64,000 nucleotides of DNA. It comes from an uncultured Gammaproteobacteria bacterium. Its GTDB lineage: Bacteria; Patescibacteriota; Patescibacteriia; Magasanikbacterales; GWA2-37-8. Shown here in pieces: positions 1,716-58,319 of the stretch. The notes below the pieces were generated by a model. That model made no database searches, was not told where the DNA came from, and saw only the letters and a program-made list of their open reading frames with translations. A program made the position numbers and the translations under genes. Location: the NCBI GenBank assembly GCA_964596525.1, contig CAZQUL010000001.1, forward strand, positions 76,830 through 140,829, written 5' to 3'. Position 1 is the stretch's first letter. Each line of letters begins with the position of its first letter.

Positions 1716-2165
1716 ATGAAGAAGCTGCTGGTGGGACTGAGCCTTTGGGGAATTGGGGCATGCGCGCACGCACCGACCTCGACGATCACATGGACGGTGC
1801 GGAACTGGACCGATGCCGAGATCCGGCACGAGGTGGCGACAGCGACGCGCGAGTATGGCACGCCGTGCCAGCTCATCACCAAGATCGAGAACGACGTGCC
1901 GTTCGACTACGTGAGCTGCTTCGTACGGATCCCGCAGGGGTACTCGCTCCCCCTGGATGCCCGAACGTGGAGGCACGCCACCCTCCACCAAGAGAGTGTC
2001 AACTATATAGCGATGAGGGCGACGATCATGCGGCAGGGCAAGCCGGTCGCCGTCGAGCTCGGCGTACGTTGCATGGGCGATGACCGCAGAGAAGACAGCC
2101 ACCTGGCGCCCAGGACCTCCGCGGACGGCGAGGAGCACCAGCTCGTCTGCAAGAAGCTCGAGTAA
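1716..2165 (+). CDS. small secreted lipoprotein, paralog 4, truncated by an in-frame TAA
   Basis: AGAGGA RBS. Signal peptide with lipobox GIGAC. The same reading frame after the TAA at 2163 continues through ...LTGGTIPTGEC..., the conserved family C-terminus. Confidence 0.55.
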   Translation: MKKLLVGLSLWGIGACAHAPTSTITWTVRNWTDAEIRHEVATATREYGTPCQLITKIENDVPFDYVSCFVRIPQGYSLPLDARTWRHATLHQESVNYIAMRATIMRQGKPVAVELGVRCMGDDRREDSHLAPRTSADGEEHQLVCKKLE

Positions 2166-2318
2166 ACGACGAGCGCGGCGCCGATCGCAGACCTGACCGG
2201 TGGAACGATTCCCACCGGTGAATGCCATGGAAATCATACAAAGATACCGCTCTGAGCCGCCATCTGGCGGCTTTTCTCATAGCGAAATATCTGCTCACCC
2301 CAGCCTACACCTCTATAG

Positions 2319-2942: not shown

Positions 2943-3025
2943 GCCCAGATGGTGGAATTGGTAGACACTCAGGACTTAAAATCCTGCGCCCAAAAGGCAT
3001 GCGGGTTCGACTCCCGCTCTGGGCA
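2943..3025 (+). tRNA. tRNA-Leu (anticodon TAA), type II with long variable arm
   Basis: GCCCAGATGGTGGAATTGGTAGACAC...GGACTTAAAATCC...GCGGGTTCGACTCCCGCTCTGGGCA. Acceptor GCCCAGA/TCTGGGC with discriminator A. Close match to canonical bacterial tRNA-Leu. Confidence 0.9.
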
Positions 3026-3163
3026 CACCTATCGTTTCGATATGTTTTAAACCGCTTTCCCGTGCGGAATTTTTTAATAGATTAACACGGTCTAAAAATT
3101 TTTAATTTTAAAAGGCCTGTGCAATGGTGACGCAGAGGCCTTGGGTATTTCTGGAATTACGGA

Positions 3164-3946
3164 CTAGAAGAGATCGGCGGCCGCGCGCTCTTCCCACGTG
3201 GCAGCTATGACTTTCTGTCCGTCCCACGCGTAATAGTGAGATTTGGGCTCTCCGTAGAGCCGACCCGTGTACGCGGTGCGGAAGACGGTGTTACGCGGAA
3301 TGAGCGCGATAAACTGTTCTCCACTCCCCATACGGCCCGCATCTCCTTGGGCGATGATGCCGCGCGCGAGCACCTCTGCTGGAAACGGTGCAAAGACGGT
3401 CTCGAAGGTGGACTCGCCACATTTCGGACATGTAGCGGGCGCATACATCCCAGCGCCTTCGGTACTGCAGGCCCTGCATTTCCAACCGACCCGGTCGCCG
3501 GTATGGGCATTACTGCCCCGGAAGCCGATCTTGGTAACCATGACCGCGATAATGAAGTCGGGACTGGAGGCTTCGCGCGCGCTAATAAGCTTATTCTTGC
3601 CTGCTCGGGTCTTGCCAATCTGAGCGAACATAAGCCGATCACACACCTTTCCATCGTCAGGATGATTGGAGGCATGACCGACTTCTTTCGCCGCGACAAG
3701 CTGGCATCCACACGTGTCGCACGCACTACCACTCGACGACCAGACCGCTCGCCCCCGATCGGGGCACGCCACGAGCGGCGGATTATCGACCGGCAGCACA
3801 CCACGCTCACGTCCCCGGCCTTCTTCACCGATGATTATGGCGGGGATATCAACGGCGGCACCCTTGAGATGCAGTGTCTTGACGGCCGCACCCGGCGTAA
3901 CCGAACCGTTTGAAATGGTAACAACACTCAACGACTGCTGATTCAT
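3164..3946 (-). CDS. hypothetical protein with CxxC...CxxC zinc-ribbon motifs
   Basis: Start MNQQ at 3946 after a GGAGGA RBS. CDTCGC and CRAC...CPKCG cysteine clusters. The longer 479-aa ORF call upstream of this start is read-through. Confidence 0.55.
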   Translation of the reverse strand: MNQQSLSVVTISNGSVTPGAAVKTLHLKGAAVDIPAIIIGEEGRGRERGVLPVDNPPLVACPDRGRAVWSSSGSACDTCGCQLVAAKEVGHASNHPDDGKVCDRLMFAQIGKTRAGKNKLISAREASSPDFIIAVMVTKIGFRGSNAHTGDRVGWKCRACSTEGAGMYAPATCPKCGESTFETVFAPFPAEVLARGIIAQGDAGRMGSGEQFIALIPRNTVFRTAYTGRLYGEPKSHYYAWDGQKVIAATWEERAAADLF

Positions 3947-4194
3947 GGCGTTCCTCCGTTTCGGGCCCGGTGGGCAGCTGCCCGTGGGCGTGAAAGTCGC
4001 TGGAGCGACACAGTGCTCTTGTACGAAGAGCGGGAAATTACCTCGCGAGATAACTTCCTTACTCTGCGCAACAGTAGAACAGACAATAGTATCGTTCTTT
4101 TCAGGCAATGTCAATGAAAACAAACTCGTTCTTAGCACTTTAAAACAGAAAGGCGGAGCGCGCGAGGCGTCCGCCATGAAGGCTAGAAGGGTCA

Positions 4195-5265
4195 TCAGTT
4201 GCTGACGACTGGAAGCTCGAAGTCGCCGATCCAGTTGGTGAAAACTTGGCCTGCGGCCGGCGTCACCTTGACCCAGATGCGTGCAACCACGAGCTCGCCG
4301 ACTTTGAGCAGCGACAGGTTGGCCGGCGGGATCCAGAAGGTAAAGTAGACCTTTTGGGTGCCGTCGCTCCTCTGGCTGAAGGTGGCGGCCGGACCCGTGG
4401 TGTTGACCGGGTAAGATACGCCGTTGTAGAACACCTCGTTGTACACCTGTATCGTCACCTGCTGACTCATCGCCACCTGGTCGAGGCGCACACCAGCCCA
4501 GAGTCCGCGCGTGGGCGAGATGGAACGATCGCCCGGCGTAGGGCAGTCGTAGCCATCGAGGGCGCCGCCGCTCGTGTAGCGCGGAACGAAAGCCACCGCA
4601 CACACGCTCGACGCTCCAGGGAAGCTATAGAGACCGTAGTGATCGATCTGCGTCGGGGGCACCGGCGGCCGGCGGGGCATGCCCGTGGTGGACGGCGGCG
4701 GGTTGGTAGTGCCACCGTCGGTCACACCGCCATCCGCTACGGAGGAGCCTACGACCGTGAAGGTCACGCGTCCGACTGGCTGCGGCGAATAACGGGAATC
4801 GGCGCGGCGGCGGATGTAGAACTCCACCGTGTGAGGACCCGTAAGATCCGGCGTGTAGGTGAGCCAGATGGCGCGGGGCGTGGCGCTCACGCCTTTAGTG
4901 CAGTACTCCCCGCTCTCGGTGTGCGGGTAGGTATCCGAGCCGTAGCGGGTGTAGAAGCACACGAGATCGTCGACGCGCAGGAAGGTGAAATACGCCGTGA
5001 CCGGCGTACCGACAGTGGGGACGGCCTTGGTAGGGCACACCACCGCACCGGACGCGTCGCTCGGCGCCGTAGCGCAGAGGGCCGGATTGCCATCCGAAGA
5101 GTAGCTGTAAGGTGAGGCGGCTCCGGTCGTTGTAACTACGCCTGGAGTCTCAGGGATGCCCGAAGCGACGGTGCCCACCGGGGGCTCTACATTCATACCT
5201 GCCTCATCGCCGCACGCGGCAATAAAGCCCGCAAACACGAGGGAAAGAACAATGAGCTTCTTCAT
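4195..5265 (-). CDS. secreted lipoprotein, 356 aa, unknown function
   Basis: AAGGAGG RBS. MKKLIVLSLVFAGFIAAC signal peptide with lipobox. Gly/Thr/Pro-rich mature region with 6+ Cys. Confidence 0.7.
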   Translation of the reverse strand: MKKLIVLSLVFAGFIAACGDEAGMNVEPPVGTVASGIPETPGVVTTTGAASPYSYSSDGNPALCATAPSDASGAVVCPTKAVPTVGTPVTAYFTFLRVDDLVCFYTRYGSDTYPHTESGEYCTKGVSATPRAIWLTYTPDLTGPHTVEFYIRRRADSRYSPQPVGRVTFTVVGSSVADGGVTDGGTTNPPPSTTGMPRRPPVPPTQIDHYGLYSFPGASSVCAVAFVPRYTSGGALDGYDCPTPGDRSISPTRGLWAGVRLDQVAMSQQVTIQVYNEVFYNGVSYPVNTTGPAATFSQRSDGTQKVYFTFWIPPANLSLLKVGELVVARIWVKVTPAAGQVFTNWIGDFELPVVSN

Positions 5266-5424
5266 GACGATTTCCTCCTTTTGTACTGTTTGGGAGATTT
5301 TGCGCAGAGCAGAGCCTAAAAAGGCGTCTGTTACGACAGGTAATGCTACCACAAAAACAACTAAAAGTCAAGCTACGAGGAGAACTGTGCAGAACCAAGT
5401 TGAAGCCATTTTTCCCGCTCTAAC

Positions 5425-5453
5425 TTGACAAAAAGCCGCCCACCGCCTATCGT
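5425..5453 (+). promoter_or_regulatory. sigma70-like promoter TTGACA-N17-TATCGT
   Basis: TTGACAAAAAGCCGCCCACCGCCTATCGT, upstream of the ATG at 5503. Confidence 0.4.
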
Positions 5454-5502
5454 GGATGGTCTCTCAACCTATGGCTCAGTGCCACCTATCAAGGAGGGTG
5501 AG

Positions 5503-5934
5503 ATGCGTTCAGTAAAGAGGATTTTGGGAATTCTGATGGCAGTGATTGCGCTCAACGGCGGGTGCGCAGCCCCGGAGCATGTTTCGGATACGCCCGTGAA
5601 AAGCGCGCCTGAGAGACAGCTCTTTTACTACGAAGTCCAGCTCAACTGCTGCGTCGACTTGTCCCGCGGCACGCCAGCCAAGGTGCCGGTATGCGAGAAG
5701 TCGATAGCTGAGGCCGACGCTTGGCTGAAGCGTGCCCTACCCGGTCATCACATTGTGCGAACCGGAAATTTCTGGACACCGCCGCAACGAGCCGGCCAGG
5801 TCGTTTTTTACCATGACGTCGAGGCGTGCCGACCGATCACCAACATCGACGACGTAGCCTATTACACCAACCTTTTCATCAGTCGTCAGGATTGTCCTCA
5901 GTCGCTTCTGCGGACGCCGATCATCATCGACTGA
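5503..5934 (+). CDS. small secreted Cys-containing lipoprotein
   Basis: AAGGAGGG RBS. Signal peptide with lipobox ALNGGC. 144 aa with several Cys. Confidence 0.6.
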   Translation: MRSVKRILGILMAVIALNGGCAAPEHVSDTPVKSAPERQLFYYEVQLNCCVDLSRGTPAKVPVCEKSIAEADAWLKRALPGHHIVRTGNFWTPPQRAGQVVFYHDVEACRPITNIDDVAYYTNLFISRQDCPQSLLRTPIIID

Positions 5935-5953
5935 AGTTCGAAACAACAACCAA

Positions 5954-5986
5954 ATCCCCGCCGGAAGTTTCCGACGGGGATTTTTA
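5954..5986. terminator. hairpin terminator between convergent genes
   Basis: ATCCCCG...CGGGGAT stem with nested CCGGAA/TTCCG, followed by TTTTT. Lies between the lipoprotein gene (+) and asnS (-). Confidence 0.45.
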
Positions 5987-5999
5987 ATTGCTGGAATAC

Positions 6000-7292
6000 T
6001 TACGGTTTGAGGCGGCCAATGGTGCGCGGGAACGGGATGCATTCGCGGATATGTTCCGTGCCCGAGATCCAGCGCACAAGGCGCTCGAGACCGAAGCCGA
6101 AGCCGGCATGCGGTACGGAGCCAAAGCGGCGCGTGTCGAGGTACCATTGGTACTCTGCTTCAGACAATCCTTCGCTTCGCATGCGCTCGAGGATGATGTC
6201 GATGTTTTCTTCGCGCTGTGAACCGCCGGCGATTTCGCCCGCGCCTTCGGTGGCGATAAGATCAGCGTTGAGGACGCGACTGTCATTGGCTGGGTCGCGC
6301 TTCATGTAGAATGGCTTGATTTCTTTGGGCCATTTTTCGATGAAGATCGGTACGGCGGATTCTTTGGTGAGAATGGCTTCGTCGTCGTTGCCAAGGTCTT
6401 CGCCGTGTTTGATGTCCGAGCCGAGACGGTTAAGCTCGACAATCGCTTCATCATAGGTGAGGCGCGTGAATGGCGCGTCGATCGCTTGGAGTTTTTGGAT
6501 ATCGCGCTCGAGGATGACAAGTTCTTCTTGGCAACTAGAAAGACACGCGCGAACGACATGACGGACAAGGCCTTCTTGGATACGCAGGTTTTCATCGTGC
6601 TCAACAAAAGCAGCTTCGGCATCCATCATCCAAAATTCGGTGAGATGGCGTTTAGTCTTGCTTTTTTCGGCACGGAAAACTGGGCCGAAATCATAGCAGC
6701 GTCCGACAGAACCGATCGCGGCTTCAAGGTAGAGCTGACCGGACTGCGATAGATATGCCGTGCCTTCGTCGAAGTACGGTACGGGGAAAAGCGTAGTCGT
6801 TCCTTCGCACGCGTTGGGAGTGAAGACCGGTGAGTCGACACGGACGAACTGCTCTTGGTGTAGATACTCTTGCATGGCCATCATGATGCGATCACGTAAC
6901 CGAAGGATCGCCCACTGGCGTTTACTCCGGAGCCAGAGGTGGCGGTTCTCAAGAAGGAAATCCGGACCGTGGTCTTTTTTGGCGATCGGGTAATCCACGG
7001 CGAGCTGGATGATGTTGAAAGACTGGAGCTGGATTTCAAAAACATTCTCTTTCTTGGGATGCTTGGTGACGATGCCGGTGAGCGTAACCGAAGATTCTTG
7101 GGTGACTTGTTCGATAGCGGCCCAAACCTCGGCAGGAAGAGAATCTTTAGCTGCCACGACGGAACGCCAAGCAGCACCATCGCGCACCTCGAGAAAGGCA
7201 ATGGAACCGGAGGAGCGTTTATTATAGAGCCAACCTTGGATAGTGATGGTTTGACCAACTAAGGAAGCTAGCGAAGAGGGCACGAGGGGCAT
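6000..7292 (-). CDS. asnS: asparaginyl-tRNA synthetase (class II aaRS)
   Basis: N-terminal OB fold, FRAEKSKTKRHLTEFWMMDAEAAF (AsnRS-type motif 2) and GFGFGLERL motif 3. 430 aa. Confidence 0.85.
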   Translation of the reverse strand: MPLVPSSLASLVGQTITIQGWLYNKRSSGSIAFLEVRDGAAWRSVVAAKDSLPAEVWAAIEQVTQESSVTLTGIVTKHPKKENVFEIQLQSFNIIQLAVDYPIAKKDHGPDFLLENRHLWLRSKRQWAILRLRDRIMMAMQEYLHQEQFVRVDSPVFTPNACEGTTTLFPVPYFDEGTAYLSQSGQLYLEAAIGSVGRCYDFGPVFRAEKSKTKRHLTEFWMMDAEAAFVEHDENLRIQEGLVRHVVRACLSSCQEELVILERDIQKLQAIDAPFTRLTYDEAIVELNRLGSDIKHGEDLGNDDEAILTKESAVPIFIEKWPKEIKPFYMKRDPANDSRVLNADLIATEGAGEIAGGSQREENIDIILERMRSEGLSEAEYQWYLDTRRFGSVPHAGFGFGLERLVRWISGTEHIRECIPFPRTIGRLKP

Positions 7293-8970: not shown

Positions 8971-10026
8971 ATGCGAAACACGCTGCCGAAGAATGCCTTG
9001 GAGCAGCAAATGACCGCCTATCTCACCACGCTCTGCTCAATAGCCGAAGGAGACACATTTCTCGCCTTGCGAATCGCAGAACTCATCGAGGAGTTCCTCC
9101 GCAACGAGTTCGCACCGATTCTGAAGACGCGGGCGGCGGACGACTTCACTGCGGCGGCAGAAGACCGCGCGCTGATTGGGAAGCTCGAGCAAGCAGGGAA
9201 GAACGTGACTCTGAACGAGGTCATCCCCAACATGCCAGACACGTTTCATGACATTGATTGGGGCGCTTTGATTCTCATTGGCCACACGCTGAGGAGCCGC
9301 CCCCCCGAAGGAATTGCGGATGCGAAGCTCAACCCGGTTCTCTTGTCGAGCATGGCCGGGGCATTCTTCACCGAATGCTTTGTGCAGGCTGCTCCTGCCC
9401 GCTACAAGACGTCGTGCGAAGGCTTTGTCCACTGGATAGCAAACATGTTTTTCCGAGCAGACAAGAAGAGCACCCTTGCGATATGGGAAGCGGCGGGTCG
9501 GCGACCGAGCAGTGCCGAGAAGCAACGGCAGGATTTGCGCGATATGCTGCGTATTAAGTCCTGCATCCGGCGCGCACACCTGAGCAGCGCTCGCTTCGAT
9601 CAGGTCGTACTCATACCCGACCGGTGGCCGACCTGGTGGTACATCGAACAGCCCAAGCTCTGGGGAGAAACCCTCGCCTGCCGACGGCACGGTGAATGGC
9701 TCATCAAGGAAATCTTTTCCACGGTGACCGGTGAGCGCGTGCAGATCCAGTCCGTCGACCGTACCCACACCGCATTCGATCTGGTCGGCAGCATGCAATT
9801 CCTGCCCGAATACGAGACGTTCGAGCTCGTGAAGACAGGCAGGTGCAAGGAAACCCACTTCGTCTCTGTAACGCGCGATAACATGATCGTACTCAAGCTT
9901 TCCGACCAGGAGGGCAGAGCCACTCTTTCCTATGACGAGTATCTACAACAGATCCTCGAGCTTATCCGTGTCGGCCGCCTCGACCCGAACACGTACGATC
10001 AGATCCTCGCTGAATATCCTACCTAA
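8971..10026 (+). CDS. hypothetical protein, 351 aa
   Basis: AAGGAGA RBS. No recognisable motif. Own promoter and terminator. Confidence 0.6.
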   Translation: MRNTLPKNALEQQMTAYLTTLCSIAEGDTFLALRIAELIEEFLRNEFAPILKTRAADDFTAAAEDRALIGKLEQAGKNVTLNEVIPNMPDTFHDIDWGALILIGHTLRSRPPEGIADAKLNPVLLSSMAGAFFTECFVQAAPARYKTSCEGFVHWIANMFFRADKKSTLAIWEAAGRRPSSAEKQRQDLRDMLRIKSCIRRAHLSSARFDQVVLIPDRWPTWWYIEQPKLWGETLACRRHGEWLIKEIFSTVTGERVQIQSVDRTHTAFDLVGSMQFLPEYETFELVKTGRCKETHFVSVTRDNMIVLKLSDQEGRATLSYDEYLQQILELIRVGRLDPNTYDQILAEYPT

Positions 10027-17705: not shown

Positions 17706-18003
17706 AATTGTTTGTTCAGATATCAGTGCTGTTTATATCAAAAATTCGATTTTCGCTCTTCGATCACGGCGGTTGAAATACCCAACCGTCGAAACCGGAA
17801 AGCGAGCCTGACGCAGATTCGAATCCTGCATGGTAAACGGCCCGTGCGTTTGCCGTTCGTCTAAATGGTTAAGATGCGCTATCCACGCTAGTACGACACA
17901 GCCACTCTCCTTCTCTACTGAGAAGGGAGTAGCGTTGAACTCTCCGCGAGCCTGGCTCGCGTATCGATACTAACAACCGTAACGGAAGAAGGAGGTGCAA
18001 GCC

Positions 18004-18450
18004 ATGCTAAGAACTCCGACCTTGTACGACATCACCGGCCTCACCACCGAGAGCGTGCTCGCCGCGCTCTACAACGCCGCGGTACAGATCTGCAATGATC
18101 CGAACGCGCCGAGCGTCATGACGGCCGAGCAGGCCTTCCAGGTACTCGGCGAGTGGCCGATCACCGCCAACTGGTCATTCGACTACCTGTACGGGAGGGC
18201 ACTCAAGGTCGGGCTGGGCCTCGAACCGCGTCAGAAGCTCGACCTGAGCGCCTACGACTCGCGCAACGGCACCGGCACCGGAGCCACCGCCCTCGCCATC
18301 CTGCGCGAGACCAAGAATCCGCAGCACCCGCACATCATCAACCTGCACCAGTACCACACGGATATGTTCAGGATGAAGTCCGCCGCCGTGCAGCTCCTCT
18401 ACGCAATGACCGACGATGAGCTCGCCGCCTCCCTGCGCATCAGGCCCTAG
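18004..18450 (+). CDS. hypothetical protein
   Basis: AAGGAGG RBS. ATG at 18004 preferred over GTG at 17995. Terminator hairpin follows at about 18455-18495. Confidence 0.5.
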   Translation: MLRTPTLYDITGLTTESVLAALYNAAVQICNDPNAPSVMTAEQAFQVLGEWPITANWSFDYLYGRALKVGLGLEPRQKLDLSAYDSRNGTGTGATALAILRETKNPQHPHIINLHQYHTDMFRMKSAAVQLLYAMTDDELAASLRIRP

Positions 18451-57746: not shown

Positions 57747-57902
57747 AAGAAATGACGTAAAAACTAGCCATGGTCAATAATAACAGGCACGAACTTAATC
57801 GTATACACCTACCACTAAACAAGTGCAGAATACTTGACGAAAAGCTCTTTTTAAGGTAGTATATCGAGTTCCGTAAAAACCCGACCATTGAAAGGAGAAC
57901 GC

Positions 57903-58319
57903 ATGCGCACGCTATTTGTTTCGTACACCGGGATCGCCCTGGCCATCAACCAAGGCACTTTAGCGCCGCTGGATGTGACGGATCCGAACGCCCTCTTCTA
58001 CCTCGGCTGCGCCCGGGAACCGCTCATGAACGACCTGGACGTACTCACGAGAACCGTCTACCCCAACGATCCAGCACGCGCGCGCGAAGTTCGCGCGCTC
58101 GTGGTGGGCGCCGTTCTCAAGGCCGAGCAGGAGGGGCGTGTGGCCTGGCGCAAGGAGAGAACCATGGGCCACTACGAAGACGTGCACAAGCTGCTCATCG
58201 CGAATGGGCTGCCTGGCATCGATCAGAGCCGACTCAGTATAACGCTCGGCACATACCACCCTGCCCTCATGAGCCGGATCGTCGAGGAGCTCGGGATTCC
58301 CGTACGGGTCGTGTACTAG
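57903..58319 (+). CDS. hypothetical protein
   Basis: AAAGGAGA RBS then ATG at 57903. Confidence 0.5.
   Translation: MRTLFVSYTGIALAINQGTLAPLDVTDPNALFYLGCAREPLMNDLDVLTRTVYPNDPARAREVRALVVGAVLKAEQEGRVAWRKERTMGHYEDVHKLLIANGLPGIDQSRLSITLGTYHPALMSRIVEELGIPVRVVY

Follow-up and report, generated by a model that had tools for sequence, protein, structure and literature searches.

Tandem families of paralogous lipoproteins are known to lose members to nonsense pseudogenisation in host-associated bacteria, Borrelia and Mycoplasma among them. A reading frame that continues past a stop codon can also be put to use, as in phage Qbeta, where programmed readthrough at UGA yields the C-terminally extended isoform known as the A1 protein; UAA is the least leaky of the bacterial stops. 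In surface-protein loci a resident gene can furthermore be displaced in situ by a divergent homologue, xenologous or allelic, and on the scale of a few nucleotides quasipalindrome mutation corrects an imperfect inverted repeat to a perfect one through a template switch, in a single event.

Here I compare with these systems a locus at the start of a 64,000-nt stretch of DNA (the window), where the reading frame of the fourth of five tandem lipoprotein genes runs on past its TAA into a tail that resembles the C-terminus of the preceding paralog. I read this tail as an ordinary scar of gene-family turnover, left most likely by replacement of an older gene and possibly by a nonsense mutation, and not as a recoding site.

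An array of five small lipoprotein genes

The array consists of five small genes on the plus strand, each encoding a protein with a signal peptide and a lipobox cysteine: p1 (28-501, +, 157 aa, public protein P0003), p2 (604-990, +, 128 aa, P0004), p3 (1125-1571, +, 148 aa with a GTG start, P0002), p4 (1716-2165, +, 149 aa) and p5 (2381-2845, +, 154 aa, P0001). The first two were taken from the ORF list and a MAFFT alignment as well as from the public proteins. A regular-expression scan for the lipobox ([LVI][ASTVIG][GAS]C) picked up p2, p4 and p5, and the lipobox-like sites of p1 (GANGC) and p3 (GAGC) were read by eye. The mechanical ORFs of p3 (1026-1571, 181 aa) and p5 (2222-2845, 207 aa) run in frame through the preceding terminator and upstream motif; the true starts, which match the public proteins, are GTG 1125 and ATG 2381. 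The array is bordered by a tRNA-Leu gene (2943-3026, +; tRNA scan and Rfam), whose UAA anticodon reads UUA and which is not a suppressor.

All units share the same architecture, with a TTGACAAAA-type motif 53-65 nt 5' of the start codon, a GAGG ribosome binding site, and a GC-rich hairpin with a T-run 3' of the gene. The upstream motif of p4, ATTGACAAAACTCCTACTTTAGGGC (1650-1674, +), was found by repeat search and flank alignments; it is promoter-like, with a TTGACA of the -35 type, and motifs of this kind are common to the p2, p3 and p5 units as well (repeat family D1), the copies lying at 550-574, 1059-1083, 1650-1674 and 2318-2340. The -35-like hexamer is a good one, and a -10 hexamer at 17 nt is weak or absent, the best being TGTAAT of p5. 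I infer a promoter function from these elements, which makes the motif a putative promoter; its conserved A-rich/GCTATTTT part could instead be the binding site of an array-wide regulator. The only AT-rich patch within p4, TGTCAACTATATAG (1997-2010), is complementary at 13 of 14 positions to CTCTATAGTTGACA (2311-2324), around the TTGACA upstream of p5, and so forms an inverted copy of the promoter-like motif within the gene, which may be chance. The array is best described as a set of individually transcribed genes in a variable region adjoining the tRNA-Leu.

Among the paralogs, p3 and p5, with 28% identity (E 1e-12), are the only pair that BLAST detects. Judging from its sequences, the family is best described as orphan, lineage-specific small extracytoplasmic lipoproteins of approximately 105-130 mature residues, each protein probably with two disulfides; that they act at the surface or in host interaction is a guess from CPR biology. 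Pfam-A and NCBIfam gave no significant match for the array family. In the public protein collection, p1, p2, p3 and p5 form singleton clusters, their members coming from the NCBI contig (1,343,778 bp) and the Logan assembly, and a search with p3 returned only itself, as did a search with the ORF antisense to p4 that is discussed below. A profile of the five paralogs, run against 1.84 billion representatives, recovered p1, p2, p3 and p5 themselves together with two large proteins, of the UCH-repeat and the He_PIG/Ig kind, which I rejected as spurious.

Together with its extension, p4 had no match at E≤10 in a word-index protein search, and exact look-ups gave no record for p4 or for the asparaginyl-tRNA synthetase encoded nearby. 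The JGI metagenome contigs matched neither p4 peptides nor the DNA pattern AAGAAGCTCGAGNNNACGACGAGCGCG, built for a variant with a sense codon at the stop; tblastn found no p4 homologue in IMG/VR, the INPHARED phages or the PLSDB plasmids, and no match in 80 loci around the asparaginyl-tRNA synthetase (AsnRS) gene of Magasanikbacteria and Patescibacteria.

A relative of the family was found by way of gene neighbourhood. The AsnRS of the window (6000-7292, -) assigns the window to Candidatus Magasanikbacteria (Patescibacteria/CPR) and has 85% protein identity with that of the nearest species representative, L001. Beside the tRNA-Leu of L001 (L001 5393-5479), in a position equivalent to that of the array, lies a gene for a single 150-aa lipoprotein (L001 5613-6065, -), which, among 5076 ORF segments, is a weak hit of the family HMM (13.5 bits, E 0.023). 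This protein keeps the helix and the first cysteine pair; in place of C3 and C4 it has other residues (SAPGH...), and it contains no further Cys. As L001 has this single weak homologue, the family appears to be restricted to the lineage and expanded in the genome of the window, where, by this comparison, it seems to have grown from one copy to five. With no homologue among approximately 15 billion proteins save this divergent copy in the nearest relative, and with the models of p3 and p4 unmatched by any PDB fold in Foldseek (best E 0.08, TM<0.3), the family is a small addition to the uncharacterised surface proteins of the CPR.

In L001 the tRNA-Leu directly follows AsnRS, whereas in the window approximately 3 kb (3027-5999), absent in L001, separate the two. 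This interval looks like a tRNA-adjacent variable region. It contains ORFs of 260 aa (3167-3946, -), with a weak rubredoxin-like match, of 356 aa (4198-5265, -), GC-rich and encoding a lipoprotein that matches no family, and of 143 aa (5503-5934, +), lipoprotein-like.

The fourth gene and its stop codon

The gene p4 starts 8 nt downstream of a GAGGA ribosome binding site. Its protein begins with MKKLLVGLSLWGIGAC, in which a positive n-region and a hydrophobic h-region precede the lipobox IGAC, and the product is predicted to be a bacterial lipoprotein of the Lgt/LspA substrate type. In the public annotation (NCBI and Logan) the locus is instead occupied by an antisense ORF (1668-2237, -) of 189 aa, Arg-rich, listed as P0007. 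I rejected it as a real gene: it has a GC1 of 0.80 and no family features, whereas p4 has a ribosome binding site, a lipobox, the family motif and a terminator. The antisense ORF is a by-product of the high GC3 of p4, and the public gene call is probably wrong. Because the gene callers took the antisense ORF, the collection of 15 billion proteins does not contain p4; the protein databases thereby lack a real lipoprotein gene, which is why homology searches for p4 fail.

The first-pass annotation had p4 end at a TAA (2163-2165, +, followed by A) and its frame continue for 29 codons, TTSAAPIADLTGGTIPTGECHGNHTKIPL, to a TGA (2253-2255), and the sequence bears this out exactly. An independent Logan assembly (run SRR11567520), 100% identical over positions 845-2985 of the window, has the TAA as well. 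The same annotation took the codon for the interruption of an ancestrally continuous reading frame. That a genuine p3-like C-terminus has left a remnant here, and that the gene in this slot once ended at the TGA, holds up; a single continuous ancestral ORF does not find support, since p4 has the four family cysteines, the size and the predicted fold before the TAA.

The cysteines of p4 are C16, C51, C68, C119 and C145. When the extension is left out, MAFFT pairs p4 over its whole length with p1, p2, p3 and p5, the lipobox Cys and four later Cys forming invariant columns, with spacings of 35/17/51/26 in p4 vs 25-32/10-20/43-58/17-25 in the family, and the TAA then stands at the usual stop position of the family. 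From the lipobox Cys it is 103 residues to C3 (78-109 in the family; the extended form offers no such value) and 129 residues to C4 (family 103-129), vs 154 if the extension is included. Four Cys follow the lipobox, as in the family, vs five with the extension, and the TAA comes 4 codons after the last family Cys, the tail KKLE lying within the family range of 3-15 residues, vs 9 residues in the extended form. The end of p4, CKKLE, is comparable to the ends CEKH and CLKEPL of other members.

In the AlphaFold models, p3 (pLDDT 79.9, pTM 0.71) carries C4 in a beta-hairpin (129-135/139-145), and truncated p4 (pLDDT 74.9, pTM 0.63, last block 85) has its terminal hairpin at 128-134/140-147. The order of elements is equal in both, one helix, six main strands up to C3 and a terminal beta-hairpin with C4, a likeness that is not fully independent of the alignment, as both models were built from the same shallow input of 5 sequences in which C119 and C145 were already paired with C3 and C4 of the family. 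The TAA lies beyond every family cysteine and every predicted secondary-structure element, and truncation at this codon removes none of the conserved domain. On the grounds of the four family Cys at family spacing, the family-typical tail and the modelled order of elements shared with p3, p4 would be a complete member of the array with TAA 2163-2165 as its own stop, and it is probably functional.

Not all comparisons fall into line with the alignment made without the extension. MAFFT alignments of the C-terminal segment of p4 are unstable: when the extension is forced in, the TAA lies inside a p4-specific insertion and GGTIPTGEC comes to stand under the C-terminus of p3. The segment from C119 to the TAA shows no similarity to the C3-to-end modules of the paralogs beyond the cysteines (z<0.6), whereas the segment from C145 to the TGA matches that of p3, and of p3 only, with z=3.7. 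With HMMs built without p4, only its N-terminal (R)xWT..E helix region scores, at 8.5-9 bits with an HMM of p3 and p5 and at -2 to 4 bits with broader ones.

Programmed readthrough, in which some ribosomes would pass the TAA-A and produce a 179-aa isoform ending in the family C-terminus, had been offered as one explanation of the extension, together with the idea that TAA-A is a weakly leaky context. I consider it very unlikely. All that speaks for it is an open in-frame extension with a family motif and, perhaps, the hairpin around the stop, formed by an inverted repeat (GCTCGTC / GACGAGC, 7 bp, 2141-2174, +) that encloses the TAA and has a CTCGAG palindrome in its loop (RNA fold of 2140-2290). 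However, TAA is the stop of 35 of the 54 genes of the window and TAA-A the commonest stop context there (15/54); the tRNAs in the window, Leu (UAA anticodon) and Met, include no suppressor, and Rfam detected only tRNA and no recoding element. The longer protein would moreover gain an unpaired fifth Cys beyond an already complete domain, 154 aa from the lipobox Cys vs at most 129 in the paralogs, and the strand residues of the motif are degraded.

Sequence and composition past the TAA

The extension falls into two parts, a GC-rich linker (2166-2195, +; GC 0.73), which has the composition of the p4 body and no similarity to the paralogs, and a stretch of native composition (2196-2255, +; GC 0.47, GC3 approximately 0.4), here called the relic, which reads TGGTIPTGEC HGNHTKIPL before the TGA. 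Its counterpart is the C-terminus of p3, SLGGTIPIIECEKH (SLGGTIPIIEC; DNA 1532-1559). The Smith-Waterman score of the extension against this C-terminus (BLOSUM62, local) is 39, vs 22.4±4.1 for shuffled peptides, of which 6 in 2000 reach 39. Dinucleotide shuffling of the 87 nt yielded no sequence among 5000 that equals the score against the last 30 aa of p1, p2, p3 and p5. The controls, which were the two remaining frames and the frames continued past the stops of the other four genes, score 15-22.

The match to p3 claimed for the GGTIP..EC block, supported also by colinear flanks, is thus confirmed, but the supposed likeness to p5 is not significant (24 vs 21.8±3.9), and the distance from the preceding Cys (C145), said to match that in p3 at about 15 residues, is similar without being the same (17 residues to GG and 25 from Cys to Cys, vs 12 and 20). 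A stop-free frame of 29 codons is unremarkable on its own, as it occurs in 39% of shuffles. I also considered, and rejected, a tandem duplication within p4 of its C-terminal module as the source of the tail, the extension having no similarity to p4.

At the DNA level, positions 2198-2225 and 1532-1559 agree in 21 of 28 nt (75%; repeat pair D3). Five of the seven mismatches form one cluster (TTATC to CCGGT), by which the strand-forming Ile-Ile of p3 has become Thr-Gly in the relic, and the other two are synonymous. The cluster creates a perfect 8-bp hairpin in the relic, ACCGGTGG-AACGATTC-CCACCGGT (2195-2218, +). In addition, ACCGGTG forms a 7-nt direct repeat. The cluster suggests change without constraint at the protein level, and the hairpin possibly stems from a template-switch event. 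Beyond the motif, the 3' flanks of p3 and p4 remain colinear through the terminator, TTGACAAAAC, AATGAG and the ribosome binding site, with 68% identity over 164 aligned nt, the best alignment among all unit pairs (z=5.0).

The TGA abuts a hairpin of the intrinsic-terminator type, GCCGCC-ATCT-GGCGGC followed by TTTTCTC (2256-2280, +; hairpin 2256-2275), which starts 1 nt later and is similar to the terminator of p2 (repeat pair D9). It is clearly visible in the RNA fold; the terminator scan missed it, probably through greedy stem extension that used the T-run. Measured from the p4 TAA, the distance from stop to terminator is 91 nt, vs 13-29 nt in the other four units.

In composition p4 stands apart from its surroundings. 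Its GC1/2/3 values are 0.60/0.47/0.85, and the GC3 of 0.85 compares with 0.60±0.07 for 70 ORFs of the window and 0.61-0.66 for the four sister genes. High expression was considered as the reason and rejected, as the genes of ribosomal proteins L15, S5, L23 and L4 reach a GC3 of only 0.58-0.61. The high GC3 begins at the p4 start codon, crosses the TAA and continues for 10 more codons (approximately 30 nt, to about 2195), in which GC3 is 0.9 in the frame of p4 vs 0.6 and 0.7 in the other frames; from about 2196, where the p3-like sequence begins, it drops to approximately 0.4. At the other end, p4 has a native 5' UTR and a native upstream motif, and in the flank alignment both are homologous to those of p5. 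Further high-GC3 ORFs without a Pfam match lie at 17995-18450 (+, 0.89), 57888-58319 (+, 0.77) and 8971-10026 (+, 0.72), and, with p4 counted among them, they point to a class of orphan genes of foreign composition that are scattered over this genome of 53.6% GC.

Origin of the tail and comparison with known systems

The reading that I favour, and to which I give about an even chance, is that an older p3-like gene was displaced by a compositionally foreign gene body that carried its own stop; of the older gene, the last approximately 60 nt would remain as an untranslated relic. A divergent, GC3-rich homologue would have come in as a block of about 1716-2195, from the start codon to some 30 nt past the TAA. 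This block lies between two native and mutually homologous segments of approximately 185 nt (about 1532-1715 and 2198-2380), each with a family 3' coding end, a terminator, an upstream motif and a ribosome binding site. Positions 2196-2255 would then be what survives of the displaced gene, now presumably part of an unusually long 3' UTR that is transcribed to the old terminator (2256-2280) and not translated past the TAA. An incoming body with its own stop fits the extent of the GC3-rich block, which ends approximately 30 nt beyond the TAA, at the beginning of the p3-like sequence. A single event of this kind would account for a four-Cys domain that is complete by the TAA, for the break in composition, for the good preservation of the relic and for the odd fifth Cys of a readthrough product. 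It is the composition of the block that points to a foreign origin, and the searches found no donor or ortholog. Some observations sit less easily with replacement: the relic is in frame with p4, which under this model is a 1-in-3 coincidence, the 10 codons that follow the TAA have a GC3 of 0.9, a weak hint that they were once coding, and it is the segment ending at the TGA, not the one ending at the TAA, that resembles a paralog module.

The same observations are what a nonsense mutation would explain, and I regard it as a tentative second possibility. Here the ORF would once have run from 1716 to the TGA at 2253-2255, until a point mutation (e.g. TAC to TAA) truncated it; the ancestor may have been an in-frame chimera of the incoming body and the native 3' end, and p4 would now be either a decaying pseudogene or the gene of a shortened protein that still functions. 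The stop-free continuation up to the terminator, the p4-like GC3 of the first 10 codons, the z=3.7 alignment of C145..TGA with the p3 module and the position that GGTIPTGEC takes under the p3 C-terminus when the extension is included all fit this history. However, it requires an ancestor with five Cys and approximately 25 aa longer than any paralog, and a mutation that by chance fell 4 codons past a Cys and so recreated the four-Cys pattern, size and tail of the family. The truncated protein is predicted to fold as the full domain, open frames of 29 codons are common in shuffled sequence, and the relic has lost its hydrophobic strand residues (II to TG).

A short gene-conversion patch, by which 30-60 nt of the 3' end of p3 would have been copied into the 3' UTR of p4 through the similar flanks of the units, so that p4 itself never had a tail, is improbable. 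The motif identity of 21/23 outside the 5-nt cluster, above the 68% of the surrounding flank, could be taken as its trace, but the flanks on either side are already colinear homologues, so that ordinary descent explains the match, and past coding constraint, with both remaining differences synonymous, explains the higher identity; nor is there a sharp tract boundary on the 3' side. Hardly credible is the idea that the motif is similar by chance or that the GC-rich block is a chimeric misassembly. A DNA match of 21/28 within 3.1 kb is by itself not extraordinary (approximately 0.2 expected, an estimate), yet the shuffles and controls fall short of the peptide score, the position is concordant and the flanks are colinear; the independent assembly is identical over both junctions, and the GC-rich block itself encodes a family member. 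A more far-reaching extension of the replacement reading, in which an episymbiotic CPR bacterium would vary its surface lipoproteins by recombination at the array, I regard as a long shot. The unit flanks of approximately 185 nt would then serve as arms by which gene bodies are swapped, and p4 would be a fresh cassette whose in-frame relic could now and then be re-fused or read through into an extended isoform.

Read as a replacement, the locus is a clean, small example of turnover in a tandem surface-protein family of a reduced CPR genome, and its weight is modest. The fourth gene combines a body of foreign composition with old native flanks and has kept a datable scar of the former occupant. 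For the annotation of similar loci it cautions that a conserved in-frame tail past a stop need not imply readthrough or decay.

Among the described systems, programmed readthrough of the Qbeta A1 type shares with p4 the in-frame ORF that runs on past the stop, but the TAA of p4 stands in the commonest stop context, has neither suppressor tRNA nor stimulatory element in the window and is followed by an extension that looks degraded. With the pseudogenes of Borrelia and Mycoplasma p4 has in common that tandem small surface lipoproteins include a member with a stop before a conserved C-terminal motif; in contrast to a typical truncated pseudogene, however, the sequence of p4 before the stop has the full Cys pattern, size and predicted fold, and nothing essential is missing. 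Quasipalindrome mutation offers a parallel for the relic itself, where the one cluster that makes up five of the seven differences from p3 completes the perfect 8-bp inverted repeat; in this case the pattern is the whole of the match, and selection for a hairpin in the 3' UTR would look alike. As for in-situ displacement by a divergent homologue, the replacement is here deduced from composition and anatomy, with neither donor nor alternative allele found, and the remnant happens to be in frame, but the anatomy is that of such loci: a distinct gene body between native flanks, a short 3' leftover of the displaced gene past the new stop, and an old terminator that is still used.
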